Part shown: positions 1 through 54,348 of the stretch, piece by piece
Position numbering within the stretch: the first letter of the stretch is position 1
Layout of the letters: every line of letters begins with the position of its first letter
DNA from: Spirochaetia bacterium
Lineage (GTDB): Bacteria > Spirochaetota > Spirochaetia > SZUA-6 > Bin103
NCBI GenBank assembly: GCA_965215345.1
Contig: CBDCDL010000001.1
Span: 845,601 to 909,600, forward strand
Reading direction: 5' to 3'
DNA length: 64,000 nucleotides
Made by a program: the position numbers and the translations under genes
Notes under the pieces: generated by a model
Seen by the model: only the letters and a program-made list of their open reading frames with translations
The model's database searches: none
What the model was told of the DNA's origin: nothing

Positions 1-229
1 CGAGGAGTTGGCGCTGCGCTACGTCGCCTCGCTCGGAGGCATCACCGGCGTCGTGGTCGGAATGGAGACCCACGAGCAGATGGAGCGCAATGTGGCCGCC
101 GTCCTGGCCGGCCCCCTGGCCGGCCCGCTCGTGGAGGCCATCGGTGAGGCGGTGCCCGACCTACCGGACGACATCATCAACCCCGGCTTCTGGCGGTGGA
201 TCCGGGACTACGACTGGGGCACGCGCTGA
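1..229 (+). CDS. aldo/keto reductase-like protein, C-terminal fragment (5' end outside window)
   Basis: The frame is open from the window edge to a TGA at 227-229. The tail ...LRYVASLGGITGVVVGMETHEQMERNVAAV... resembles the C-terminal region of AKR-type oxidoreductases. Assigned from memory only. Confidence 0.5.
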   Translation, partial: EELALRYVASLGGITGVVVGMETHEQMERNVAAVLAGPLAGPLVEAIGEAVPDLPDDIINPGFWRWIRDYDWGTR

Positions 230-231
230 AG

Positions 232-798
232 CTACTGCACTGCGTATTCGATGCGCCGTGCCAACGAGTCGAAGTCTTCGACGCACTTCTGGCGAATCGC
301 CGATATCCGTCGCGCTGCTTCTTCCCCCAGTCGCTTGCGCCCGCCTCCAGGGCCGTCGGCCACTCCGCGCTCTTTGGCAAGTACGTCGAAGTACCGTTCT
401 TTGACGTGAATCTCGGCGCGTACCTCGGTCCAAGTCCAGCCTGAGAGCATTTTCAGGCCGGCCAGAACCCACGTCTCCACCTCTTCCCATGCATTCTCAG
501 CGAGAAAGGTCGGACCCCTTCCGAACTTGGCTTTGAGGTGATCGAGCCGTTCGCGGCGTCCCGTTACTCCGTCTCGATCCACACACAGAATGAAGAGATC
601 CGTCATTCCTCCGTAACGCGCCACAATCTCGGCCAACAGGTCCGGTTTCAAGGCTTCGCTAATGCCTCGCAGCAATGGATCCTGACAGACGCGGATCTGC
701 GCTCTCGATCTATCCAACGATCGCAAGAGCCGTTCGAACAACGGCTTGAGGATGTATTGGTCTTTGCGGAAGTCCTCCGGGATGACGAGTATGTTCAC
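232..798 (-). CDS. small Toprim-like / DUF4276-like protein, partner of the upstream ATPase
   Basis: 188 aa if it starts at GTG 798-796, which overlaps the ATPase TGA (GTGA at 795-798). The N-terminal NILVIPEDF and central LFILCVDRDG give an E...DxD acidic pattern like Toprim-type nuclease partners. The extension to 966 in the ORF track lies inside the ATPase gene. Family name not verified. Confidence 0.55.
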   Translation of the reverse strand: MNILVIPEDFRKDQYILKPLFERLLRSLDRSRAQIRVCQDPLLRGISEALKPDLLAEIVARYGGMTDLFILCVDRDGVTGRRERLDHLKAKFGRGPTFLAENAWEEVETWVLAGLKMLSGWTWTEVRAEIHVKERYFDVLAKERGVADGPGGGRKRLGEEAARRISAIRQKCVEDFDSLARRIEYAVQ

Positions 799-2096
799 GC
801 AGGATGCTCGTCGCCGTTCTTGCGGCTCTCGGTGAAGGCGAGCGCGTCTTCCATCCATCCAGACGTGTGGAGACGCCCCAGACTCTGCGACTCGCGTAAC
901 TCCGCCGCCTTGTGAAGTTCGGAAACCGGTCGGATGATCGCGTCGGTCGTCTCCGGGAGCCTGCACACGACGGACGTGTTTTCGAACGTGCGGTCGCCAA
1001 TCATGCTGAGAAGCTCGGGGGAGTGCGTAGTGGTCACCACCTGAGTCCCGCCCTTCGCGGTTTGACCCTCGATGAGGTCGAGCAGCAGGCGCAGTCGTGA
1101 CGGGTGGATTCCGTTGTCGATCTCCTCAAAGAAATACAGGCGAGCCGGATCGGTTCCGAGGAGCGCGGCAAGGATGGCGAGAAAACGCAACGTGCCGTCC
1201 GAGGCGCTGTAGGACGACACCCTCCTTCCGTCTGCATCCCGGATCAGGAGCTGGACTCGACCACTGATCGGGTCGACTGGAAAATCGAAGTCCCGTACGT
1301 CCATCGGTGTCAGCTCGCGGGTCCACTCGGTGAGCGTTTCCCGTCGCTCCGCATCAGCGCAGATTTCCCGCAGGACTGTCGGCAAGTTCTCGCCGCTGTC
1401 GCCGAGGATAGTCTGCCCTGGGAACGATGGCTGCCGGATCCGATCCGGAGCCAAATCGAGGAAGCGCATGCTGGCGAATATGTCGATGACTGCCTGGATC
1501 TGTTCCTTGTGTACCCGCGCGGCGTGCTTGATTTCCCGGATTTGTGTAAGGGCCGGTTGATCGTTGCGTACGTTGACCCGATGTCCAACTTTCCGCTGGT
1601 TTCCCGTCTTTGCCATGCGGAGCTGCAGTGACCTTTCGTCGTCCGAGCGGGGGAGACGGTCGGCTGTATACACTGGGTGACTCGTATAGGTTGGTTCGTG
1701 CCAACTCGGCGACCGAAGTTCCTCCATTTCGACTCGGAACCCACTCTGGCTTCCTTCGTTGCCGCTCAGTTCGATCCGCTGGCCGAACGTCAAGGATCGC
1801 CTTTCCTTCGTTGTCCGAACTGTGACCTGAATGCCGAACACGTTGCTCTCGAATCGGCTGATCTCGTTGGCGGCTCCTCGGATTTGCTCCCACTCGACGT
1901 GCCCGCCGGCTCCGTACTTGCCGCCGATGATGTCGGCGAGCGCGTAGCGTCGGCCGATGCCATGAAGGATCCGGAAGGCGTCGCGGATGTTGCTCTTGCC
2001 GCTGGCGTTCGCACCGACGATCACGGTGAACGGGCCAACGCGAAGCGTCTCGTCGGCGAAGTTCTTGAAGTCGCGGAGCTCCAACGCCGTTATCAT
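795..2096 (-). CDS. ABC-type (AAA_15/AAA_21-like, SMC/RecF/OLD-class) ATPase
   Basis: 433-aa ORF with Walker A GANASGKSN near the N-terminus. Walker B/D-loop LYFFEEIDNGIHP and H-loop TTTHSPELL lie near the C-terminus, with a long insert between them. G+C is about 55-62% in sampled 60-nt lines versus about 70% in the flanks. Confidence 0.85.
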   Translation of the reverse strand: MITALELRDFKNFADETLRVGPFTVIVGANASGKSNIRDAFRILHGIGRRYALADIIGGKYGAGGHVEWEQIRGAANEISRFESNVFGIQVTVRTTKERRSLTFGQRIELSGNEGSQSGFRVEMEELRSPSWHEPTYTSHPVYTADRLPRSDDERSLQLRMAKTGNQRKVGHRVNVRNDQPALTQIREIKHAARVHKEQIQAVIDIFASMRFLDLAPDRIRQPSFPGQTILGDSGENLPTVLREICADAERRETLTEWTRELTPMDVRDFDFPVDPISGRVQLLIRDADGRRVSSYSASDGTLRFLAILAALLGTDPARLYFFEEIDNGIHPSRLRLLLDLIEGQTAKGGTQVVTTTHSPELLSMIGDRTFENTSVVCRLPETTDAIIRPVSELHKAAELRESQSLGRLHTSGWMEDALAFTESRKNGDEHPA

Positions 2097-2105
2097 GATA
2101 ACAGT

Positions 2106-3452
2106 CTATCCGTCAGTTGCCGCCGCCTTGACCAGGGGATCACGAATGGCATCGGCTACCGCATCGACCAGCTCGTCGACCATCTGCGGCGTGGTCGGGA
2201 CGGAGATCGAGCACATCCCCAGGGTGTGGCCCAGGAAGAAGCCGCGGTCGAGCAGGGCCAGGAAGAGGGGCGACACCCAGCGCTTGTCCGCATCGAGCGA
2301 CGAGCGGTAGTCGCGCGGCGGCTCCGCGCGGAAGTGGATGGCGAACGCGGATCCGTTGTTGTGCGCCGAGGTCGGCACCGGGCAGGCGGCCAACGCCGTG
2401 CGGAGCCCGCGCGTCAGGCGGTCGCCCAAGGCGGCCAGGTGCTCGAAGGCGGCCGGCGTCAACTCGCGCAGCATCGCCAGGCCCGCAGCCAAGGTCACCG
2501 GGTGGCTGGCGAAGGTGCCGCTCTGGCCGATGCCCCGCCCGGCCGCCGGATCGTACCAGTCCATGATGTCGGCGCGCCCGCCGAAGGCGCCCACCGGGAA
2601 GCCGCCGCCGACGATCTTCCCGAACGTGGTCAGGTCGGGCGTGATCCCGTAGTACTCCTGGGCGCCGCCGCGTGCCAGCCGGAAGCCGACGATCTCGTCG
2701 AAGACCATCAGCACGCCGTGCCGGGCGGTGATCTCGCGCACGCCGCGGATGAAGTCCGCCGGCAGATCCAGGACGCCGCTCTTCGGATCCAGCATGACGC
2801 ACGCCAGCTCGCCGGCGTGCTCGGCGATCAGCCGCTCGGCCGCCTCCAGGTTGCCCAGGGGCAGCACCATCGTGTCGGCCACCGCCCCGGCCGACATGCC
2901 GATCGCCTGCGCGTAGGGCAGCGGGCGCTCGGCCGGGCCGGCCTCCTCCAGCGGGGGCGCGACCGAGACCTCCACCGAGTCGTGGCTGCCGTGGTAGCAG
3001 CCCTCGAACTTGGCGATCAGGTTCCTGCCGGTGAACGCGCGCGCCAGGCGTACCGCGTGCAGGCTCGCCTCCGTCCCGGAGTTGGTGAAGCGCGCCCGTT
3101 CCAGGCTGGCCACGCGGTTGCACAGCTCCGCGCACGCCTCGGTCTCGTGCCCCATGGGCGCGCCCAGGGCAACCCCGCGCTGCAACTGCGCCTGCACCGC
3201 CGCCATCACGGCCGGGTGGTTGTGGCCCAGGATCTGACCGGTGTGGTGGTTGGCGAAGTCGGCGTACCGGTTGCCGTCCACGTCGAACAGGTACGGGCCG
3301 TCGCCGCGCTCCATGGTCAGCGGGTAGGGGCGGTAGAAGTAGGCGCCCTTGGCGACGCCGCCCGGAGTGGCGTCCGCGTCGGCCATAAAGCGCTCCAGGG
3401 AGCGGGGAGTGGCGGCGAAGAAGCGCGCCTCGAGCTCATTTGCCGGTTTCAT
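2106..3452 (-). CDS. class III (glutamate-1-semialdehyde aminomutase-like) PLP aminotransferase
   Basis: 448 aa. Shows GSA-AT-like blocks: YLFDVDGNRYADF, GHNHPAV, CYHGSHD, VFDEIVGFR and a PLP-lysine context TTFGKIVGGGFP. Confidence 0.9.
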   Translation of the reverse strand: MKPANELEARFFAATPRSLERFMADADATPGGVAKGAYFYRPYPLTMERGDGPYLFDVDGNRYADFANHHTGQILGHNHPAVMAAVQAQLQRGVALGAPMGHETEACAELCNRVASLERARFTNSGTEASLHAVRLARAFTGRNLIAKFEGCYHGSHDSVEVSVAPPLEEAGPAERPLPYAQAIGMSAGAVADTMVLPLGNLEAAERLIAEHAGELACVMLDPKSGVLDLPADFIRGVREITARHGVLMVFDEIVGFRLARGGAQEYYGITPDLTTFGKIVGGGFPVGAFGGRADIMDWYDPAAGRGIGQSGTFASHPVTLAAGLAMLRELTPAAFEHLAALGDRLTRGLRTALAACPVPTSAHNNGSAFAIHFRAEPPRDYRSSLDADKRWVSPLFLALLDRGFFLGHTLGMCSISVPTTPQMVDELVDAVADAIRDPLVKAAATDG

Positions 3453-3536: not shown

Positions 3537-4976
3537 ATGTCGAACATGAACGTCGTCTGCATCTGCCTGGACACGTTTCGGGCGGACATCGTGGGCTCAG
3601 GCAAGAAGTACAGCCACGTCCGGACCCCCAATCTCGATGCCCTGGCCGCGCAGAGCATCCGCTTCACGCGCGCCTTCGGGGAGTGCCAGCCGACGCTGCA
3701 GATCCGGCGCGGGCTGTTCACCGGGCGGCGCAGCTTCCCGTTCCGGTACCACTTCGACCGGCGCGGCCACTGGCACCACGCGCCGGGGTGGCACAAGATC
3801 CCGCCTGACCAGGACACCATCGCCGAGGTGCTGCTGGCGCGCGGCTACCTCACCGCCCTGATCGCCGACACCTACCACATGTTCAAGCCGACCATGAACT
3901 ACTCCCGCGGATTCGCCCACCTCGACTTCGTCCGCGGGCAGGAATCCGACAACTGGAAGAGCGGCGATCCGCGCTTCGTCGAGGAGCAACTCCGCCGCCA
4001 CGTGCGCGAGCCGATCGACTGGCCGCGGCACGCCACCCTGGTCAACTACCTGCTCAACCAGCGCCACCGGCAGTCGGAGGACGACTACAGTTGCGCCCGC
4101 GTGTTCCGCGCGGCCTGCGACTGGCTGCAGGACAACCGTGCGATGAAGCCGTTCTTCCTCTGGATCGACAGCTTCGATCCGCACGAGCCGTGGGATCCGC
4201 CGAAGGCGTATGCCGATCTCTACCATCCGGACTATTCGGGCAAGGACTTCATCATGCCAGGGGCTGCGCAGGAGGACGCGACGGAGGAGGAGCTCCGCCG
4301 CATCGAGGCGCTCTACCTGGGCGAGGTCACGTTCGTGGACAAGTGGGTGGGCGCGTTGCTGGACAAGCTGGAGGAGCTGAAGCTGTTCGACGACACGCTG
4401 GTGGTCTTCGTGTCCGACCACGGCACGCAGCTCCGCGACCAGGGTCGCTTCGGCAAGTCGGACCGGGAGCTGCATCCGTTCAACACGCAGTTGAACCTGT
4501 GCCTGCGCCATCCCGGCGGGCCGGCCGACTGCGACGTCACGGCGCTGGTGCAGAACCACGACCTGATGCCCACGATTCTTGCGCGGCTGGGCGTCCCGTG
4601 CGGCTGGACCGACGGCGAGGATCTCTGGCCGCTGGTCACCGGCAAGAAGACGGCGATCCGGGAGCGGATCGTCACCGGCTGGGCGGACGGCTCGCCCGGC
4701 AACGCGCGGGCGCGGGTGAGCGTCCGCGACGACCGGTGGAACTACTGCACGGCGGTCGGCTACGAGGACGAGGACCGGGACGAGTTGTTCGACCTTGGCG
4801 ACGACCCCAAAGAGCGCCACAACGTCGTGGCCGACCATCCGCAGGTGGTGGCCGAGTGCCGGGCCGAGGTGGAGGCGCTGATCGGCCAGCCGCTTCCCGG
4901 GACGATGGTGGAGATGTCCGACCCGGCCATGGGGCCGATGCTCGAATGGCTGGACCGCAAGCTGCGCGAGCTGTAG
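3537..4976 (+). CDS. sulfatase-family hydrolase with atypical active-site motif
   Basis: Start MSNMNVVCICLDTFRAD... is a typical sulfatase N-terminus (an alternative GTG lies at 3483). DSFDPHEPW and VFVSDHG blocks are present. The formylglycine motif region reads CQPTLQIRRGLFTGR rather than CxPxRxxxxTGR. Confidence 0.8.
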   Translation: MSNMNVVCICLDTFRADIVGSGKKYSHVRTPNLDALAAQSIRFTRAFGECQPTLQIRRGLFTGRRSFPFRYHFDRRGHWHHAPGWHKIPPDQDTIAEVLLARGYLTALIADTYHMFKPTMNYSRGFAHLDFVRGQESDNWKSGDPRFVEEQLRRHVREPIDWPRHATLVNYLLNQRHRQSEDDYSCARVFRAACDWLQDNRAMKPFFLWIDSFDPHEPWDPPKAYADLYHPDYSGKDFIMPGAAQEDATEEELRRIEALYLGEVTFVDKWVGALLDKLEELKLFDDTLVVFVSDHGTQLRDQGRFGKSDRELHPFNTQLNLCLRHPGGPADCDVTALVQNHDLMPTILARLGVPCGWTDGEDLWPLVTGKKTAIRERIVTGWADGSPGNARARVSVRDDRWNYCTAVGYEDEDRDELFDLGDDPKERHNVVADHPQVVAECRAEVEALIGQPLPGTMVEMSDPAMGPMLEWLDRKLREL

Positions 4977-4978
4977 CG

Positions 4979-5836
4979 ATGAACCAGCTCACGCCAACGG
5001 CGGCGGAACGCGCCGCGGAGCGGTTCGGTGACGCCGCGCTGCAGCGGGCGGTCACGGCGCTGCAGGCCGACGGCTACGTGGTGATCGACGACGTGATCGA
5101 CCACGCCCACCTCGACCGGCTGCAGGAGCGGATGATCCAGGACCTGGAGAAGATCCGCGCACTGCCCCCGGTGCCGCACAACTTCGTGTGGGGCAACATC
5201 CAGCAGACCCCGCCCCCTGATGACGGCCTGGTGTTCCGCGACGTGATGGCCAACCCGTTCGTGTGCCAGGTGACCCGCGCGGTGCTGGGCTCAGGCGCGT
5301 TCAACAACACCCTGACCGGCAACACCAACGTCCCCGGCAGCGGGCTGCAGCCCGTGCACGTCGACGACGGTCAGCTCTGGCCGAACCTGAGCGTGGCGCA
5401 TCCGCCGGCGCGGCTGGTGGTGAACGTCCCCCTGAGCGAGACCACGGAGGAGAACGGCGCCATCGAGCTGTGGCCCGGCACGCACCTCGACACGCTCATG
5501 GTGATCGGCAACAACATCCGGGTGCCGGTGGAGCACGTCGCCGCGCGGCGAGCCGTGCGCGGACCGCTCCGGGGGTATACCCGCAAGGGGGCGGTGCTGA
5601 TTCGGGACATGCGGCTGTGGCATCGAGGCACGCCCAACCGCAGCGCAGCGCCACGTTTCATGATCGCAATGATCCACACCGTCGCGTGGTATCGACGGGG
5701 CTCCCGCGCCGAGCTGGCGCAGGAGTGCGCGCCGGTGTTCGCCGGCTGCCCGATCGAGAACGTGATCCCCCTGGTGCCCGCGCCGAAGGACCACCTGACC
5801 GGCAACAGGCCGTACGACTACTCCGGTCCCGACTGA
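4979..5836 (+). CDS. phytanoyl-CoA dioxygenase (PhyH) family Fe(II)/2-oxoglutarate oxygenase
   Basis: The ATG lies 3 nt after the sulfatase stop. 285 aa with DGYVVIDDVI, VHVDDG (HxD) and RLWHRGTPN blocks. The 581-aa ORF-track version is an upstream shadow overlapping the sulfatase gene. Confidence 0.85.
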   Translation: MNQLTPTAAERAAERFGDAALQRAVTALQADGYVVIDDVIDHAHLDRLQERMIQDLEKIRALPPVPHNFVWGNIQQTPPPDDGLVFRDVMANPFVCQVTRAVLGSGAFNNTLTGNTNVPGSGLQPVHVDDGQLWPNLSVAHPPARLVVNVPLSETTEENGAIELWPGTHLDTLMVIGNNIRVPVEHVAARRAVRGPLRGYTRKGAVLIRDMRLWHRGTPNRSAAPRFMIAMIHTVAWYRRGSRAELAQECAPVFAGCPIENVIPLVPAPKDHLTGNRPYDYSGPD

Positions 5837-35287: not shown

Positions 35288-36940
35288 CTAGTTGCCGACG
35301 TACCGGTTGTAGGCGGCGGTTACCACCTCGACGAACTGGTCGAAGTTGCCGGACTTGACCTTTGCAACGTGGTCATCCCACTCGCTGAAGGGCACCTGGC
35401 CGGCCATGAACTGCGCCTCCATCTCGTTGACGTACTGGCCGGTCTCGGTCATGTAGTCGGCGACCACCTGCGCCTCCGCCTCCGTGAACGACAGACCGCG
35501 CAGTATCTCCTCCGGGAAGTACGGCTCGTATAACGCAAGACTTTCGGCGTTGAGAAGGACGTTGGGATAGTTCGCGATCGGCGACTTGATCCAGACTTCC
35601 TGGAACGTCTCGTTCGACCAGAGAATGGGGATCCGGCCGCCGTGGAACGGAGTCCAAACGCCGCGGGGCCCCTTGTTCGGCCAGTCGGAGTTGGCGTCCG
35701 GAGCCCAGATGGCCTTGCCCTGGTCATCCCGAATGAAGTCCCAGATGCCGTTCTCGTCCACCTGGTAGGTCACGCCCTCGACACCCCAGTCCAGCAGGAC
35801 GTAGCCGTCCTCGCTGAAGAAGTAGTCGACCCAGCGCATGGTCGCCTCCGGGTGCGGGTTGGCCGACGTGATCGCGAACGTGTGCGGCTGCACGACGGTC
35901 GGATTGACCGCCGAGAAGAGCTGGTCGCCGTACGGTCCGATCAGCGGACCGGCGATGGCGAAGTCCACGTCATGCGGATGCATGAAGGCCGGGGAGGTCT
36001 GCGGATGCGAGCCGAGCCGATCGGTGGCTCCCAGCGCCTGCCAGTCCGCGACCGAGTGGGCGAAGTGATCGGGATCGATCAGGTTCTCCTCCCACATCAG
36101 GTTCAGATACTCCAGGATCTCCCGGTACCCGTCGCTGATGGGGATGTAACGGAGATTGCCGTCGGGCCCGACGTCCATGCCCGTCTGGCCGCGCAGGCCG
36201 TTCCCTCTGGTGCCGAGACCCCAGGCGCCCAGAAACTGTTCCACGAAGCGGCCGGTGCCGGTGCTGAAGTCGGCCAGCCCCACTTCGTCCTGTCGTCCGT
36301 TGCCGTTGGGATCCCCATCCCGGAAGGCGAGCAGCGTGTCCAGGTACTCGTCGGTGGTGGTCGGCATCGGCAGGCTCAGGTTGTCCAGGAACTTCTGGTT
36401 CACCCACATCCGGTGGACCCGGTTGAGGGCCACCTCCTGGATGTTGCCCAAGGTGTACTTGCCTCCGTCCGCGGATTCCAGCTTCCACTCGGGGTGCCGG
36501 GCGAAGATCACGTTGAGATTGGGGGAGTAGTCGGTGAGCGTGTTCATGTCGACGAACACGCCGGCCGCCCCGTACTTCAGCACGTCCAGGTCACCCAGGT
36601 CCAACCGATAGAAGAAATCCGGGAGGTCGCCGGTCGCCAGCTTCAGTGCCTGCCGCTCGCCGTACCCGGCATCCGGCACGATCTCCCACTCGATCCGGAT
36701 GTTGGTGCGCTTCTCCATCTCCTGGAACACCAGCATCTCGTCGAACGGGCCCTGCTGCGGATGGTAGCCGCCAAAACCGCGCAGCGTGATCGGCTCGTCC
36801 ACGATCGGCAGGCCGGTCATCCGGGCACCGCTCTCGGTGGTCGCCGCCTCTTCGACACCCGTCGCCCACGCCGCTCCGCTCACGAAGCAGAGGGCGACGA
36901 TCAGGGCCACTACGGACCACTGTCTCTTGTGCATGTGCAC
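35288..36940 (-). CDS. extracellular solute-binding protein of a carbohydrate ABC transporter (large LplA-like type)
   Basis: 550 aa with an N-terminal signal peptide (WSVVALIVALCFVSGAAWA). It sits immediately downstream of two sugar-type permease genes. Confidence 0.8.
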   Translation of the reverse strand: MHMHKRQWSVVALIVALCFVSGAAWATGVEEAATTESGARMTGLPIVDEPITLRGFGGYHPQQGPFDEMLVFQEMEKRTNIRIEWEIVPDAGYGERQALKLATGDLPDFFYRLDLGDLDVLKYGAAGVFVDMNTLTDYSPNLNVIFARHPEWKLESADGGKYTLGNIQEVALNRVHRMWVNQKFLDNLSLPMPTTTDEYLDTLLAFRDGDPNGNGRQDEVGLADFSTGTGRFVEQFLGAWGLGTRGNGLRGQTGMDVGPDGNLRYIPISDGYREILEYLNLMWEENLIDPDHFAHSVADWQALGATDRLGSHPQTSPAFMHPHDVDFAIAGPLIGPYGDQLFSAVNPTVVQPHTFAITSANPHPEATMRWVDYFFSEDGYVLLDWGVEGVTYQVDENGIWDFIRDDQGKAIWAPDANSDWPNKGPRGVWTPFHGGRIPILWSNETFQEVWIKSPIANYPNVLLNAESLALYEPYFPEEILRGLSFTEAEAQVVADYMTETGQYVNEMEAQFMAGQVPFSEWDDHVAKVKSGNFDQFVEVVTAAYNRYVGN

Positions 36941-37070
36941 TTCTCCTCTAGGGAACTGTTCGAGTGCGATTGAACCCGCCAGCCGGCTCGACGAGCCCGC
37001 CGCGCGTCCAACTTCATACGACTATTCGCAAGGCGCTTCCTTCGTCACCTCCTTGATCCGTGGATATGCT

Positions 37071-37964
37071 TCATCCCTTGATCGCTCCGATCATCACGCC
37101 CTTCACGAAATATCTCTGCAGGAACGGGTAGAGCAGCAGGACCGGCACGCTCGCGAAGATGATCACGGCGTACTTGAGGATTTCCGCCAGCATCGCCTGC
37201 TCGAAATACGCCTCGTCGGCGATGTCGACCATCTCGTCGATGCGCTCCTGCACCAGGATCTCCCGCAGGATGAGCTGCAGGGTGAACCGCTCGCGGTCGC
37301 TCAGGTAGATGAGCGCGTTGAAGTATGAGTTCCAGTGCCCCACTCCGTAGAACAGGATCATGACCGCCAGCACGGGACCGGAGACCGGCAGCACGACCCG
37401 GACCAGCGTATGCACGTGGCTGCTGCCGTCGATCGCGGCCGCATCGTACAGCTCGTCCGGAATCGTCCGCAGAAAGAACGTCCGCATGATGAAGATCAGG
37501 AACACCGACACGGCGTTCGGGATGATCATGACCCAGAATGTGTTGACCAGCCCCAGCCCGTCCACCACCAGGTAGGTGGGGATCAGACCGCCGTTGAAGA
37601 ACATGGTGAAGGTCAGGTAGATGAGGATGATCTTCCTGCCGAAGAACCGTTTGCGCGACAGCGGATACGCCGCCAGCACGGTCATGGTGACGTTCACGGC
37701 AACGCCGGCGATGGTGTAGAAGATCGTGTTGCGGTAGCCCATGAGGATGTCGTCGTTGGTGAGCACCCGCCGGTACGCTTCTATCGTGGTGCCGCGCGGC
37801 ACGATCCACACGTTGCCCTGCGAGATCTCCACCGGCGTGGAGAGCGACGCGATGGCCACGAACCAGAGCGGGTAGGAGTACAGGAGCAGGATGCCGATCA
37901 GGAACGCGGTGTTGGCGACGTGGAACACCTTGTCCGCGCCGGTGTCCTTGACGACAGGGGGCAT
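37071..37964 (-). CDS. carbohydrate ABC transporter permease (LplC/MalG-like)
   Basis: 297 aa with six hydrophobic spans and the EAA-type loop AAAIDGSSHVHTLVRVVLPVSGP. Confidence 0.88.
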   Translation of the reverse strand: MPPVVKDTGADKVFHVANTAFLIGILLLYSYPLWFVAIASLSTPVEISQGNVWIVPRGTTIEAYRRVLTNDDILMGYRNTIFYTIAGVAVNVTMTVLAAYPLSRKRFFGRKIILIYLTFTMFFNGGLIPTYLVVDGLGLVNTFWVMIIPNAVSVFLIFIMRTFFLRTIPDELYDAAAIDGSSHVHTLVRVVLPVSGPVLAVMILFYGVGHWNSYFNALIYLSDRERFTLQLILREILVQERIDEMVDIADEAYFEQAMLAEILKYAVIIFASVPVLLLYPFLQRYFVKGVMIGAIKG

Positions 37965-37993
37965 CGCTGCGCGTTCCTACTCGCCTTCGGGCC

Positions 37994-38962
37994 TCACCAC
38001 AGGCTGGACCCGGTGAGACGCCGCGATGCCGCGTTGACGATGATGAGGACGATGAAGTTGACGACCGAATTGAACAGCCCCACGGCTGCACCGAAGCTGA
38101 ACTGCGCGCCGAGGAGACCCACCCGGTAGACATAGGTCGATATGACGTCGGACGTCGGCAGATTGAGCTGATTCTGCATCAGGTAGATCTTCTCGAAGCC
38201 GACCGCGAGAATGCCGGCCGCCGACAGGATCAGCAGCACGATCGCGGTGGACATGATGCCGGGGATCATCACGTGACGGATGCGCTGCAGCCGGCTCGTC
38301 CCATCGATGATCGACGCCTCCACCACTTCGTGATCGATGCCGGCCAGCGCGGCCATGTAGATCACGGAGCCCCAGCCGGCGTGCTGCCAGACGCCGGACC
38401 ATACGTAGACGTGCTTGAACCACCCGGGCTCCGTCATGAAGGACACCGGCTCGAAGCCGACCAGCCCGATCACCGCGTTGATGACGCCTCTGCTCGGCGA
38501 CAGGAACAGGATGATCATGCCGACCATGACCACCGGGGACAGGAAGTACGGGGCATAGGTGATGTTCTGGACCACCTTCTTGAAGCCCAGGAGCCGCAGC
38601 TCGTTCATGGAGAGCGCCAGGATGATCGGGATCGGGAATCCGACCAGCAACTCGTAGAGGCTGATGGTCAAGGTGTTCCTGATGACGCGGACGAAGTGGA
38701 ACGAGCTGAAGAAGCGGACGAAATGCTTGAATCCCACCCACGGGCTGCCCAGGATGCCGAGCGGGCCGAGATACTCCTTGAAGGCGATCTGCACGCCGTA
38801 CATCGGCCAGTAGTGGAATATGGCGAAGAAGACGAGCACCGGCAGGATGAGCGCGTAGAGCTGCCAGTCCTGCCGAACGTAGCGCAGCTTGCCCTTCGCG
38901 GTGAGCCTGCCGTCGATCTGCAGGGCGCCGGCTGGTCGTCGCCGCGTGCGGATGTCGCTCAT
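37994..38962 (-). CDS. carbohydrate ABC transporter permease (LplB/MalF-like)
   Basis: ATG at 38962 (MSDIRTRRR...). EAA loop EASIIDGTSRLQRIRHVMIPGI. The ORF-track start at 39040 adds 26 unlikely residues. Confidence 0.85.
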   Translation of the reverse strand: MSDIRTRRRPAGALQIDGRLTAKGKLRYVRQDWQLYALILPVLVFFAIFHYWPMYGVQIAFKEYLGPLGILGSPWVGFKHFVRFFSSFHFVRVIRNTLTISLYELLVGFPIPIILALSMNELRLLGFKKVVQNITYAPYFLSPVVMVGMIILFLSPSRGVINAVIGLVGFEPVSFMTEPGWFKHVYVWSGVWQHAGWGSVIYMAALAGIDHEVVEASIIDGTSRLQRIRHVMIPGIMSTAIVLLILSAAGILAVGFEKIYLMQNQLNLPTSDVISTYVYRVGLLGAQFSFGAAVGLFNSVVNFIVLIIVNAASRRLTGSSLW

Positions 38963-39122
38963 GGCCGAGTTCGGCTGCGCAGGGGGCTGGATGTCAAGGT
39001 GAAGCCCGAACGATACGCTGCGACGCCTCGGTAACGTCAAGGCGATTCCGGCGGGGTTGCCTGCATTTCGTTGATCTGCTGGCCGTTCTCAAGCACGGAG
39101 CTGGCAAGACGTCCATGCGGTT

Positions 39123-51259: not shown

Positions 51260-52900
51260 ATGTCCAGCGCTCTACCGGTCGCCGAACAACGCGATGCGTT
51301 GCGCGAAGAGAATCGCCGTCTGATCCTGGAGAAGGACGAGCTGACGGCGAAAAACGGTGAGCTGGACACGAAACTCCGAGCACTGAACAAGAAGCTGGAT
51401 CTCTACGAAGAGCAGGTGGCGTGGTTCAAGAACAAGCTGTACGGCCGCAGCAGCGAACAACTCACCGCCGCCGAGCTGCAGCAGATCCGGCTGTTCGATG
51501 AGGTCGAACACGCCGCCGACACCGACCCCCCAGAGGACCAAGCGCCCGCTGAGCCGCCCCCGGATGAGGCGACCGCCGAAGTGCTTGAGCGAACCCGCCG
51601 TCGCCCGCGGCGCAGACCGCTGCCGCAGGCGCTGCCGCGCGTCGAGCAGGTCATCGACCTGACCGAGCAGGACAAGCAGTGTGAGTGCGGCCACCGCTTG
51701 GTGCGCATCGGCGAGGACACCTCCGAGAAGCTCGACGTGATCCCGCCGCAGGTGCAGGTGATCCGCACGGTGCGGCCCAAGTACGCCTGCCATCACTGCG
51801 AGGGCTCCGGCGACGAAGGGCATCCGGCGGTCCGGGTGGCGCCGCCGCCAGCGGCGCTGATCCCGAAGGGCCTGGCCTCGGAGGGGCTGCTGGCGTTCAT
51901 CGCCACGGCGAAGTTCTGCGACGCGCTGCCGCTGTATCGGCAGGAGCGGCAGTTCGCGCGCCTTGGAGTCGAGTTGTCGCGGCGCACGATGTCGGACTGG
52001 ATGATCGCGGCCGCCGGCGCCTGCCAGCCGTTGATGGCGGCGTTGCTCGACAAGCTGCGCAGTGGGCCGACGCTGCAGATCGACGAGACCACCGTGCAGG
52101 TGCTCAAGGAGCACGAGCGCGCCAACACCGATCTCAGCTACGTGTGGGTGGCCCGCGGCGGCCCGCCTGATGAGCCGGTGCTGGTCTATCGCTATGAGCC
52201 CAGCCGCGCCGCGCGGGTGGCCTTCCAGATCATCGACGACTACCAAGGCTACGTGCAGACCGACGGCTACGACGGCTACACGCGTCCGTGCGCGCAGCCC
52301 GGCATCGTGCACGTGGGCTGTTGGGCGCACGTGCGCCGAGCGTTCAAAGAGGCCGCCGACGCGCTGGGCAAGGTGTCCGGCCGCGTCGGAGCGGCGCTGC
52401 AAGCGCTGGGGTTCATCGCCAAGCTGTACCGCGCCGAGGCGCAGCTAGCGAAGCACCGCAAGGAGGATCCGGCGGGGTTCGTGGCCGCGCGGCGCGCACA
52501 GGTACAGCCGGTGCTCGACACGTTCCACCGCTGGCTGCAGGACAAACGCGATCAGGTGCTGCCCGGCTCGGCGCTCGGCAAGGCGGTCGCCTTCGCGCTC
52601 GGTGAGTGGCCGAAGCTGATCCGCTATCTGGAACACCCGCAGCTCACGCCGGACAACAACGCCTGCGAGCAGGCGATCCGGCCGTTCGTGGTGGGCCGCA
52701 AGAACTGGCTGTTCTCTGGAAGCCCGCGCGGAGCGGCGGCGAGCGCGATCCTGTACAGCCTGATCGAGACCGCCAAGGCCAACCGCCGCGAGCCGTACTG
52801 GTATCTGCGCGAGCTGTTCGAGAAGCTGCCCCATGCGCGCACCCGCGCTGACTACCTTACACTCCTGCCCACTGCACGTCCGCCGCCGCCGGCTTCATAG
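51260..52900 (+). CDS. tnpC: IS66 family transposase TnpC
   Basis: 546 aa with an N-terminal leucine-zipper region, a CxxC...CxxC zinc-ribbon (CECGH...CHHCEG), DETTVQVL and GCWAHVRRAF DDE-region blocks. Confidence 0.92.
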   Translation: MSSALPVAEQRDALREENRRLILEKDELTAKNGELDTKLRALNKKLDLYEEQVAWFKNKLYGRSSEQLTAAELQQIRLFDEVEHAADTDPPEDQAPAEPPPDEATAEVLERTRRRPRRRPLPQALPRVEQVIDLTEQDKQCECGHRLVRIGEDTSEKLDVIPPQVQVIRTVRPKYACHHCEGSGDEGHPAVRVAPPPAALIPKGLASEGLLAFIATAKFCDALPLYRQERQFARLGVELSRRTMSDWMIAAAGACQPLMAALLDKLRSGPTLQIDETTVQVLKEHERANTDLSYVWVARGGPPDEPVLVYRYEPSRAARVAFQIIDDYQGYVQTDGYDGYTRPCAQPGIVHVGCWAHVRRAFKEAADALGKVSGRVGAALQALGFIAKLYRAEAQLAKHRKEDPAGFVAARRAQVQPVLDTFHRWLQDKRDQVLPGSALGKAVAFALGEWPKLIRYLEHPQLTPDNNACEQAIRPFVVGRKNWLFSGSPRGAAASAILYSLIETAKANRREPYWYLRELFEKLPHARTRADYLTLLPTARPPPPAS

Positions 52901-52924
52901 AGACTGGTTTCGCCGGTCGCTTAC

Positions 52925-52932
52925 GTCGAGAG
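52925..52932 (+). repeat. target-site duplication GTCGAGAG, right copy
   Basis: See the left copy at 50470-50477. Confidence 0.7.
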
Positions 52933-53292
52933 AGAAAAACGTATTGGATATGTGTCTCAGGGAGTAGTGCGCGGATTCCCACGCGCCCTCGATGCGCCGC
53001 ACTATCTGTTCATCGACGATCGCTCGTCTCGGCACGCCGCTCAGAGCTCTCCCACGTATCGAACGAGTCTCAGGGGACGTTCGCAGTTGGGTGCTGTAGC
53101 TGCGACGGCACTTGGCCGTCGGCGTAGCGCTGCCGATGGGTACGCTCCCACTCCTGCGCCTCATGGCATGTCCGGCGGGCTGAGGCACTGCAAGAAGATC
53201 GCGCCACCATCAGCAAACACTCCACGGCAACCTGAGATTCTCCGTGCGGCTGTCGTACACGACGGGATGAGGGTCGACCGGAGCTTCGCTAG

Positions 53293-54348
53293 TCACCGTT
53301 CCGGTTGATAGTCGAGGTACCGATCTGATTGCGACAGAGACTCGTCCAGCAGCACCAGCGGCCCGACCTCATCGATCTCGCCCTGAGACACCACTACACC
53401 GTCCTCGCCCTGAGACAGGGCAAAGTAACGTTGCTCGACCTTCGTATATTCCGCATCGTTGCGGAGGAGGTCGAATTCTCTCATCAGGAACAAACTGTGT
53501 GTGGCGACGAATATCTGCATTCCTTCGGAACATACGCCGAGGATGGCTTTTGCTACCTCGCGGACCAACTTCGGGTTCAGGTTGGCTTCAGGTTCGTCCC
53601 AGAACAGACAGCTTCCGTTCAGCAGTGATCCTGTGGCGATCAACCTCACCAGCGTGGCGATCTTGCTCCATCCTTCAGCAACCAGCGGCACTTCCATATT
53701 CCCTGTTCCCGGAGATCGCAGATAAAAGCGCCCGTTGGGGTCAAGTACCACTTTGCCGATTTGCTCCTCGAGCGGTGCGAGCAGACGCGCGACCGTCTGC
53801 TCCCGAGGTCCCCTGAGCGTGGGAGAGCCGAGCAGAAGGCAGGTGTCGCGCCATGTCTCTTCGAACTCCAGGTGACGGGTAGCATAGAGCGACACGGATC
53901 CAGGGTAGATCGTCAGCAATTCGCGCGTGGGCAGGTAGACGGGAGCAGCTTCGAGCCAACGTGACGGGCAGAGGTCGACTTCGACCTCCGACCTGTTCTG
54001 GGTGGCGAAGTTGAAGGCCAGCGACGTTTGCGGGTCGTGGAAACGCACTTCCACTGCGCACCGCCGGCGACCCGGCGCACGCCGTGTCAAACGGCCGAGG
54101 GACTCAGGGCGAAACACGCCGATGAGTTTTTCAGCCAAGCGCCCTCTGAGCAGTGCTTTGGTAGGCTCCCGCGGGTTCGACCTCCGGCTCTCCTCGGCAA
54201 TCACCGCCATCACCGTGTAGGGGAGCTTGAGTAACTGCGTTTTTCCCAATCCGTTTTCGCCGACGATGACGTTGAGTCCCGCGCAGAAACTCAGTTCCGC
54301 TTCCTTGAATGCCATGAAGTTCTTGACGTTCAGAGTCTTCAACATCAT
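53293..54348 (-). CDS. orphan ABC-type (AAA_15/AAA_21-like) ATPase in low-GC DNA
   Basis: 351 aa with Walker A GENGLGKTQ, Walker B/D-loop CLFWDEPEANLNP and H-loop VATHSLFLM. G+C is about 57% by eye. Confidence 0.8.
   Translation of the reverse strand: MMLKTLNVKNFMAFKEAELSFCAGLNVIVGENGLGKTQLLKLPYTVMAVIAEESRRSNPREPTKALLRGRLAEKLIGVFRPESLGRLTRRAPGRRRCAVEVRFHDPQTSLAFNFATQNRSEVEVDLCPSRWLEAAPVYLPTRELLTIYPGSVSLYATRHLEFEETWRDTCLLLGSPTLRGPREQTVARLLAPLEEQIGKVVLDPNGRFYLRSPGTGNMEVPLVAEGWSKIATLVRLIATGSLLNGSCLFWDEPEANLNPKLVREVAKAILGVCSEGMQIFVATHSLFLMREFDLLRNDAEYTKVEQRYFALSQGEDGVVVSQGEIDEVGPLVLLDESLSQSDRYLDYQPER

Follow-up and report, generated by a model that had tools for sequence, protein, structure and literature searches.

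In a 64,000-nucleotide stretch of a Spirochaetia bacterium genome (contig CBDCDL010000001.1, positions 845,601 to 909,600; the whole stretch is called the window below), two overlapping genes encode an ATP-binding cassette (ABC)-type ATPase and a small Toprim-like protein. The pair has been horizontally acquired and inserted between convergent aminotransferase and aldo/keto-reductase genes, and it probably represents a self-contained, mobile conflict module, directed against phages or mobile elements and belonging to the ABC-ATPase plus Toprim-nuclease type. This reading is based on the fact that the two genes are always linked and coupled, occur as a bare 1.9-kb insertion, and are found in unrelated phyla both standalone and embedded in Hma operons. 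It is further based on the ATPase, which keeps its motifs while harboring a hypervariable insert, and on the small protein, which keeps E8, D74xD76 and E106/E108 and is better conserved than the ATPase. The role in defence is proposed by analogy with systems of similar architecture.

The inserted gene pair

Both genes lie on the reverse strand. The upstream open reading frame (ORF; 795-2096) starts with ATG and encodes a 433-residue ATPase of the AAA_21 or SMC-head-like kind, presumed to be the sensor or regulator. The downstream one (232-798) starts with GTG at 798, stops at 232-234 and encodes a 188-residue, divergent DUF4276-type, Toprim-like protein, presumed to be a metal-dependent nuclease effector. 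The TGA of the ATPase gene and the GTG of the small ORF overlap in a GTGA read directly at 795-798, an arrangement of translational coupling. Upstream, a class-III aminotransferase gene (2106-3452, reverse strand; Pfam Aminotran_3, 7.6e-53) stops 9 nt (2097-2105) before the ATPase ATG, and downstream, 2 nt (230-231) separate the stop of the small ORF from that of a convergent aldo/keto-reductase gene, whose 3' end (8-229, forward strand) is cut by the window start. This fragment matches Aldo_ket_red weakly, and its full-length orthologs carry PF00248; both flanking genes are outside the module. Re-reading of the window confirmed every detail of the ORF layout, overlap and spacings given in a preliminary description of this DNA. 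A 244-residue version of the small ORF (232-966), mechanically the longest, was rejected because the ~2,800 homologs have 187-196 residues and start with MN(V/I)L.

The pair is the lowest-G+C 1,865-bp stretch of the window, with a G+C content of 0.602, whereas the window as a whole averages 0.690 (z = -3.1). At third codon positions (GC3), the ATPase gene has 0.75 and the small ORF 0.67, compared with 0.94 in the aminotransferase gene, 0.92 in the reductase fragment and 0.93 in a sulfatase gene, and the low G+C content claimed earlier is thus upheld against three neighbours. A promoter scan at the pair found nothing promoter-like. The 14-bp perfect palindrome GTTATCATGATAAC (2087-2100, reverse strand), centred on the ATPase start codon, was considered as an operator or att site and discarded, as it is conserved in no other locus, including the orthologous L001; it is probably a chance occurrence.

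Comparison with empty sites delimits the inserted DNA to ~1,888 bp (230-2117). The closest ortholog of the aminotransferase (92% identical), on the 7.4-Mb contig of locus L088, has the same sulfatase, PhyH and Xre-RES neighbourhood without the pair, and further empty sites occur in L092 (aminotransferase 89% identical) and in L090 and L091 (78%). In L088 and L092, the stop codons of the aminotransferase and reductase genes are 14 nt apart. Homology between the window and the empty sites stops after the ...AAA codons of the aminotransferase gene (window position 2118) and restarts exactly at the reductase stop (229), and the insert has provided the aminotransferase with a new C-terminus, TDG* replacing EAS*. 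The window and L001 (aminotransferase 88% identical) have one common insertion junction, and their copies are 78% identical in the ATPase and 82% in the small protein, without decay. No target-site duplication and no inverted repeats were seen at the insert ends by eye. Horizontal acquisition, as claimed earlier, follows from the empty sites in close relatives, the anomalous composition and the varied contexts across about ten phyla; the synteny comparison proposed at that time finds the flanking genes adjacent without the pair in L088, L090, L091 and L092.

Two further observations concern this neighbourhood. An Xre antitoxin and RES toxin gene pair lies beyond the aldo/keto-reductase gene (L001:9651-10672; L088:8450-9479), with or without the ATPase pair, at a position that falls beyond the window start. 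A few genes upstream of the aminotransferase, L088 encodes an 848-residue HD-CE plus HATPase_c_3 protein (L088:1-2107).

The ATPase and its small partner

The ATPase matches Pfam AAA_21 (PF13304) over model positions 1-304 of 304 (1.7e-33, 117.4 bits, cut-off 27), with SMC_N and AAA_15 as further Pfam matches behind it. Its best matches in PADLOC-DB are four PDC-M07A models, all full length (8.3e-62 to 1.8e-57), followed by HEC-01A (8.7e-40), AriA (2.3e-35), mad3 (3.3e-26), AbiLi (1.2e-21) and Old (8.5e-11), while the NCBIfam MAD3 equivalog model gives 86.7 bits, below its cut-off of 420. The nearest relatives in the PDB by sequence are SMC heads (1.5e-10). Pfam, PADLOC and PDB therefore agree with the earlier assignment to the SMC/RecF/OLD class of ABC ATPases.

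In 83 orthologs, at least 90% conservation is found in Walker A GANASGKSN (residues 28-36, 1989-2015), the ABC signature-like SASDGTLRFL (residues 297-306, 1179-1208), the Walker B/D-loop LYFFEEIDNGIHP (residues 320-332, 1101-1139) and the H-loop TTTHSPELL (residues 355-363, 1008-1034), all on the reverse strand. The insert at about residues 90-230 (1407-1829, same strand) is hypervariable and nearly unalignable in the same orthologs, with almost no column at 60% conservation. The Walker A, Walker B/D-loop, H-loop and long insert had been read correctly in the preliminary description. The insert is a candidate trigger-recognition region, a role suggested by analogy with what Payne et al. discuss (2024, bioRxiv 10.1101/2024.01.29.577857).

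The small protein escapes the available profiles. No Pfam or PADLOC model, Pfam DUF4276 (PF14103; cut-off 30.2 bits) included, matches the 188-residue or the 244-residue form at a limit as loose as E <= 10, and no NCBIfam model matches the 188-residue form at E <= 0.1; AriB and DUF4435 were likewise without a match in the Pfam and PADLOC scans. Searches of PDB sequences gave no match for the protein and chance-level matches only for its family profile. The family comprises 2,795 clusters at 90% identity and 656 at 50%, and one of its members, P0195, passes the DUF4276 threshold with 31.9 bits, the match covering model positions 7-191 of 192; P0195 and the window protein share 41% identity (E 2e-41). 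When 54 diverse members were scanned singly, 25 matched DUF4276 weakly, below threshold, and six matched RloB (weak, best E 0.0018); in PADLOC, 16 of the 54 matched HEC-01B (best 1.6e-6) and three mad4, and neither the window protein nor any of these relatives matched PDC-M07B. In a local reciprocal hmmsearch with decoys, the small-protein family and DUF4276 enrich for each other with non-significant scores. As far as sequence goes, the link to DUF4276 is thus transitive, via family members such as P0195, and the window protein lies either at the margin of the current model or beyond it.

In an alignment of the 54 diverse sequences (A2, mean column identity 35%), E8, D13, E108 and C172 are invariant, and D74, R75, D76, R81, E106, W110, L112, A113 and K133 are nearly so. 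The AlphaFold 2 (AF2) model, with a mean predicted local distance difference test score (pLDDT) of 83.8, has the order b-a-b-a-b-a-b-a (strands b, helices a) plus a helical tail, with predicted strands at residues 2-7, 34-37, 68-73 and 97-102. It is from these strand positions that E8/D9 are placed after strand 1, the DxD after strand 3 and the EExE after strand 4. The first acidic pair belongs to IPED (residues 6-9; 772-783, reverse strand, as for the next two motifs) and sits right after strand 1, at the position of the Toprim glutamate; in canonical DUF4276, these same residues read LVED. D74-R75-D76 (571-579) is placed by hhalign on the CDLDD of DUF4276, and the acidic cluster AWEEVETWVLAG (residues 103-114, 457-492), which contains E108, is in register with AIEEGEAWLLGD. 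Bona fide DUF4276 proteins from similar loci thus read LVED (6-9), VCDLDD and AIEEGEAWLLGD, and the window protein IPED (6-9), CVDRDG and AWEEVETWVLAG. Conserved in the sub-family are also P7, D13/Q14, C38/C72/C172 and a GPGGGR loop, for which the canonical DUF4276 alignment showed no counterpart.

According to PMC12065111, both DUF4276 and RloB belong to the Toprim superfamily and carry its conserved glutamate and DxD motif. The window protein has the glutamate on the predicted strand-1/helix-1 loop (E8) and the DxD after strand 3 (D74xD76), so that the Toprim-like E...DxD pattern noticed earlier stands and can be specified as DUF4276/RloB-type. The predicted order of strands and helices likewise fits Toprim. 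The best structural match of the AF2 model in BFVD is a phage RloB-like protein (probability 1.0, template modelling (TM) score 0.51, E 4.8e-3). A control model of a bona fide DUF4276 protein reached a pLDDT of 62.9, which made a Foldseek search with it meaningless. The small protein is very likely a divergent DUF4276-type Toprim protein, with a predicted fold, beyond the reach of current hidden Markov models (HMMs).

Occurrence across genomes and related systems

Through the small protein, 85 related loci were fetched; the overlap and neighbour counts cover 81 loci and the identity comparison 82 copies. An ortholog of the ATPase (44-78% identical) lies immediately upstream of the small ORF in all 85, and 74 of 81 retain the 4-nt overlap. 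The loci span about ten phyla. Genome loci number at least 517, and in the 80 best of them the small protein has 60-73% identity to that of the window; these 80 belong to metagenome-assembled genomes (MAGs) of Acidobacteriota, Alpha- and Gammaproteobacteria, Latescibacterota, Binatia, Chloroflexota, Spirochaetia, Gemmatimonadota, Rhodothermaceae and Actinomycetota. The mean G+C content across loci is 0.576 in the pair and 0.642 in the flanks, and that of the pair is lower nearly everywhere. When loci are compared pairwise, the small protein is the better conserved of the two in 96% of cases (67% identity, vs 55% for the ATPase). No third conserved gene emerged, since outside the Hma genes, present in a quarter of the loci, no neighbour family recurs among the 81 loci beyond lineage-specific synteny.

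The pair is also carried by two plasmids, where it is annotated as "hypothetical protein" and located near integrase and relaxase genes. Some genomes contain two or three copies of the pair. Two per genome were recorded as L075 and L077 (one Dehalococcoidia contig), L026 and L059 (one Binatia genome) and L018 and L066 (one Defluviicoccus MAG); in CBDDDS010000003.1, two copies with identical match statistics lie ~17 kb apart in inverted orientation. Many of the relatives presumably come from sponge and coral holobiont MAGs, to judge from isolate names (RHO3_bin, APA_bin, CAR2_bin, SB0661_bin, Langseth_MAG, Plut_88886, Ca. Palauibacter poriticola). An aminotransferase 86% identical to that of the window is labelled Geodia barretti, and one Poribacteria match is also present.

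In 22 of the 81 loci, the pair lies between HmaB (DUF1156 methylase) and HmaC (DUF499 ATPase), with HmaA (SNF2 helicase) further upstream; the PADLOC matches of these genes reach 2.9e-113, 6.9e-77 and 4.8e-163, respectively. The standalone copies (60 of 82) have intact ORFs and are interspersed with the embedded ones; identity between the two kinds reaches a mean of 85%, between L055 (embedded) and L042 (standalone). Several Hma operons carry two or three tandem ATPase plus Toprim pairs of different sub-families, including canonical DUF4276. Such tandem pairs were seen between HmaB and HmaC in L032, L049, L059, L063 and L080 (~10.6-14 kb in each locus), with truncated DUF4276 ORFs in L032 and L063. 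Another Hma locus, L016, has between HmaA and HmaB an AbiJ_NTD4/PDC-S32 protein (4594-5499, 1.7e-54) and a small retropepsin-like aspartyl protease ORF (4170-4589).

One close counterpart is HEC-01 (Hma-embedded candidate 01), which Payne et al. (2024, bioRxiv 10.1101/2024.01.29.577857) described as an ABC ATPase together with a TOPRIM protein of the DUF4276 family, located within Hma. It shares with the window pair the order of an ABC ATPase followed by a small DUF4276-type Toprim protein, the HEC-01A match of the ATPase, the HEC-01B matches of the 16 partner relatives, and the position between HmaB and HmaC in the 22 embedded loci. However, the window copy is itself standalone, its ATPase is closer to PDC-M07A and its small protein has no HEC-01B match. 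Since these Hma loci also contain bona fide HEC-01B/DUF4276 genes in further pairs of their own, the window partner is regarded as a distinct sub-family. PDC-M07 is one of 145 untested candidates, defined as the cassette FAM_00005>>FAM_01367 (10.1101/2024.01.29.577857); a literature search for it found no papers. The window ATPase matches its component A over the full length, and the FAM_00005 ATPase super-family is also found in HEC-01 and HEC-02, but component B is unmatched by the window partner and the 54 relatives, so that the pair cannot be called PDC-M07 on both components.

Other systems are similar in part. The methylation-associated defence system MADS has an ABC ATPase plus DUF4276 sub-module, Mad3/Mad4, within a methylase-containing defence operon, mad4 being a DUF4276 protein (PMC12065111), and deletion of mad3 or mad4 lowers MADS protection (10.1101/2023.03.30.534895). 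The mad3 match of the ATPase and the mad4 matches of three of the 54 partner relatives recall this sub-module, but the ATPase is no MAD3 ortholog (86.7 vs 420 bits) and no other mad genes are nearby. In PARIS, the ATPase scaffold releases a Toprim tRNA nuclease upon trigger sensing (PMC11464382), which makes this two-gene system of ABC ATPase and separate Toprim effector the best-understood mechanistic analogue. The AriA match of the window ATPase, however, is to a generic 304-position AAA_21-like model, and the DUF4276-like, 188-residue partner, which has no AriB match, differs from AriB, a DUF4435 protein of ~300 residues. An ABC ATPase coupled to a Toprim-superfamily nuclease is also found in AbiL (AbiLi ATPase plus RloB-like AbiLii), in class 1 OLD and in Gabija GajA, to which the AbiLi and Old matches of the ATPase are related. 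The best structural match of the partner, an RloB-like phage protein, also recalls AbiL, but its family's RloB profile matches are weak. In OLD and GajA the ATPase and Toprim parts are fused, unlike the two overlapping ORFs of the window.

The architecture and both protein superfamilies are therefore already catalogued in HEC-01, PDC-M07 and Mad3/Mad4, and no new mechanism or architecture is involved; the novelty lies in a large partner sub-family that extends across phyla and is missed by current HMMs, and in a clean insertion polymorphism. In that sense, the "undescribed variant" of the preliminary description holds for the partner, which escapes the Pfam, PADLOC and NCBIfam HMMs, and not for the combination, because ABC ATPase plus DUF4276-Toprim pairs are known from HEC-01, Mad3/Mad4 and, on the ATPase side, PDC-M07.

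Elsewhere in the window, a second, unrelated ABC/AAA_21-like ATPase of 351 residues (53293-54348, reverse strand), with GENGLGKTQ, FWDEPEANLNP and FVATHSLF, lies in a low-G+C islet of ~0.61. Directly beside it is an ORF (51260-52900, forward strand) that, from its sequence, is presumably an IS66-family-like transposase. No partner ORF is evident in 52900-53293, and comparison of this ATPase with PDB sequences gave weak ABC matches only; it may be another mobile defence-type gene. A third low-G+C stretch (~35300-39100, minimum 0.612) holds three ORFs that, by eye, are taken to be an ABC sugar-transporter operon, with a solute-binding protein (35288-36940) and two permeases (37071-37964 and 37994-39040).

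Proposed role of the pair

The proposed model, drawn by analogy with PARIS, OLD/Gabija and Mad3/Mad4, is that an oligomer of the ATPase would hold or gate the small Toprim nuclease. An infection cue, which in the Hma context might be a phage anti-restriction protein, would be sensed by the variable insert of the ATPase, and ATP binding or hydrolysis would release or activate the nuclease. This putative metal-dependent enzyme would then cut a conserved nucleic-acid target, either tRNA or other RNA or DNA, so that the infection is aborted or the invader destroyed. Where it is embedded in Hma, the pair might act as a guard against anti-restriction factors.

Several points weigh against a conflict module of this kind. 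A physical complex, its trigger, nuclease action, the molecule cut and a defensive effect are all postulated from analogy. The evidence for a Toprim fold is indirect: the structure prediction and Foldseek comparison that had been recommended gave the RloB-like match in BFVD, but against the PDB they returned generic three-layer alpha/beta folds (flavodoxin, lumazine-synthase-like) at E > 0.01, with no Toprim or OLD entry in the top 50. In hhalign, the family profile and two DUF4276 profiles (A3 and A4) align with their motifs in register at E ~0.01 and a probability of 4-5%, which is not significant; this is attributed to the DUF4276 profiles, built from Hma-locus proteins, being too narrow. 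No Hma genes are present in the 64 kb of the window, where the pair lies outside any defence island. Copies are rare on plasmids, with 2 in 72,556, and none was found in 50,697 phage records. Finally, the only HEC-01 representative put to the test, from Pseudomonas agarici, gave no protection in E. coli against BASEL and classic coliphages (10.1101/2024.01.29.577857). The ATPase-nuclease conflict module of the preliminary description is thus strengthened by linkage, coupling, mobility, motif conservation and Hma embedding, while its defensive function still has to be argued from related systems, one representative of which was negative. Of the outcomes named there as contrary, a non-Toprim fold, conserved linkage to the aminotransferase and an ordinary G+C content, none was found.

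It could be argued that the pair is an accessory or guard sub-module of methylation-based systems such as Hma and MADS, and that the standalone copies are orphans without independent function. Its location exactly between HmaB and HmaC in 22 of 81 loci, with tight or overlapping junctions, agrees with this idea, as do the failure of HEC-01 alone to protect and the requirement for mad3 and mad4 within MADS. Such a dependence is nevertheless improbable, given that 60 of the 82 copies stand alone, with their ORFs intact and both the catalytic motifs and the 4-nt overlap conserved, and that standalone and embedded copies interchange frequently. In addition, the window and L001 copies, which share a junction, have diverged to 78% and 82% identity without decay, and therefore point to purifying selection on the standalone pair. 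Little weight can be given to the proposal of a selfish addiction or toxin-antitoxin-like module, in which a nuclease toxin checked by the ATPase would be kept by post-segregational killing and bring no benefit against phages. Repeated embedding in an operon of restriction-like kind would sooner be expected of defence genes, and the combination of a hypervariable insert in the ATPase with a strongly conserved effector fits an arms-race sensor better than an antitoxin. The minimal coupled two-gene cassette, its patchy distribution and its plasmid copies would suit an addiction module, although the latter are very rare (2 of 72,556); the Pfam label of AAA_21 ("putative AbiEii toxin, type IV TA") and the Xre/RES toxin-antitoxin genes nearby in relatives point in the same direction.

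A housekeeping function, either in DNA repair or chromosome maintenance (RecF/SbcC/OLD-like) or in the aminotransferase pathway, is hardly credible. The likeness of the ATPase to SMC/RecF/Rad50 heads, the 9-nt spacing, which suggests co-transcription with the aminotransferase gene, and the lack of a promoter-like site are outweighed by the absence of the pair from L090-L092 and from the closest relative L088, whose neighbourhood is otherwise identical. The pair also has different neighbours in other genomes, a foreign GC3 and, in some genomes, two or three copies. The empty-site polymorphism therefore rules out an aminotransferase-linked role, and presence/absence polymorphism largely refutes the housekeeping explanation as a whole.

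Within the preferred reading of a mobile conflict module, a more specific version is rather unlikely. The sub-family might be a self-sufficient defence system distinct from HEC-01, with a conserved effector (67% mean identity across about ten phyla, with residues of its own), a universally conserved cellular or viral target, and a bare 1.9-kb cassette in sponge and coral symbionts that is able to dock into Hma as a guard.

The sub-family is widespread, with ~2,800 clusters when grouped at 90% identity, 656 when grouped at 50%, and no fewer than 517 genome loci, and the HMMs of Pfam, NCBIfam and PADLOC-DB v2.0.0 do not recognise the window partner; such pairs are therefore probably left uncalled in HMM-based defence surveys, for instance those of sponge and coral symbiont MAGs. 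The clean empty and occupied site, together with the occurrence of the same cassette standalone and in Hma, offers a natural experiment. It may also help to explain the negative result with HEC-01, as the native trigger or the Hma context may be needed for these pairs to act.

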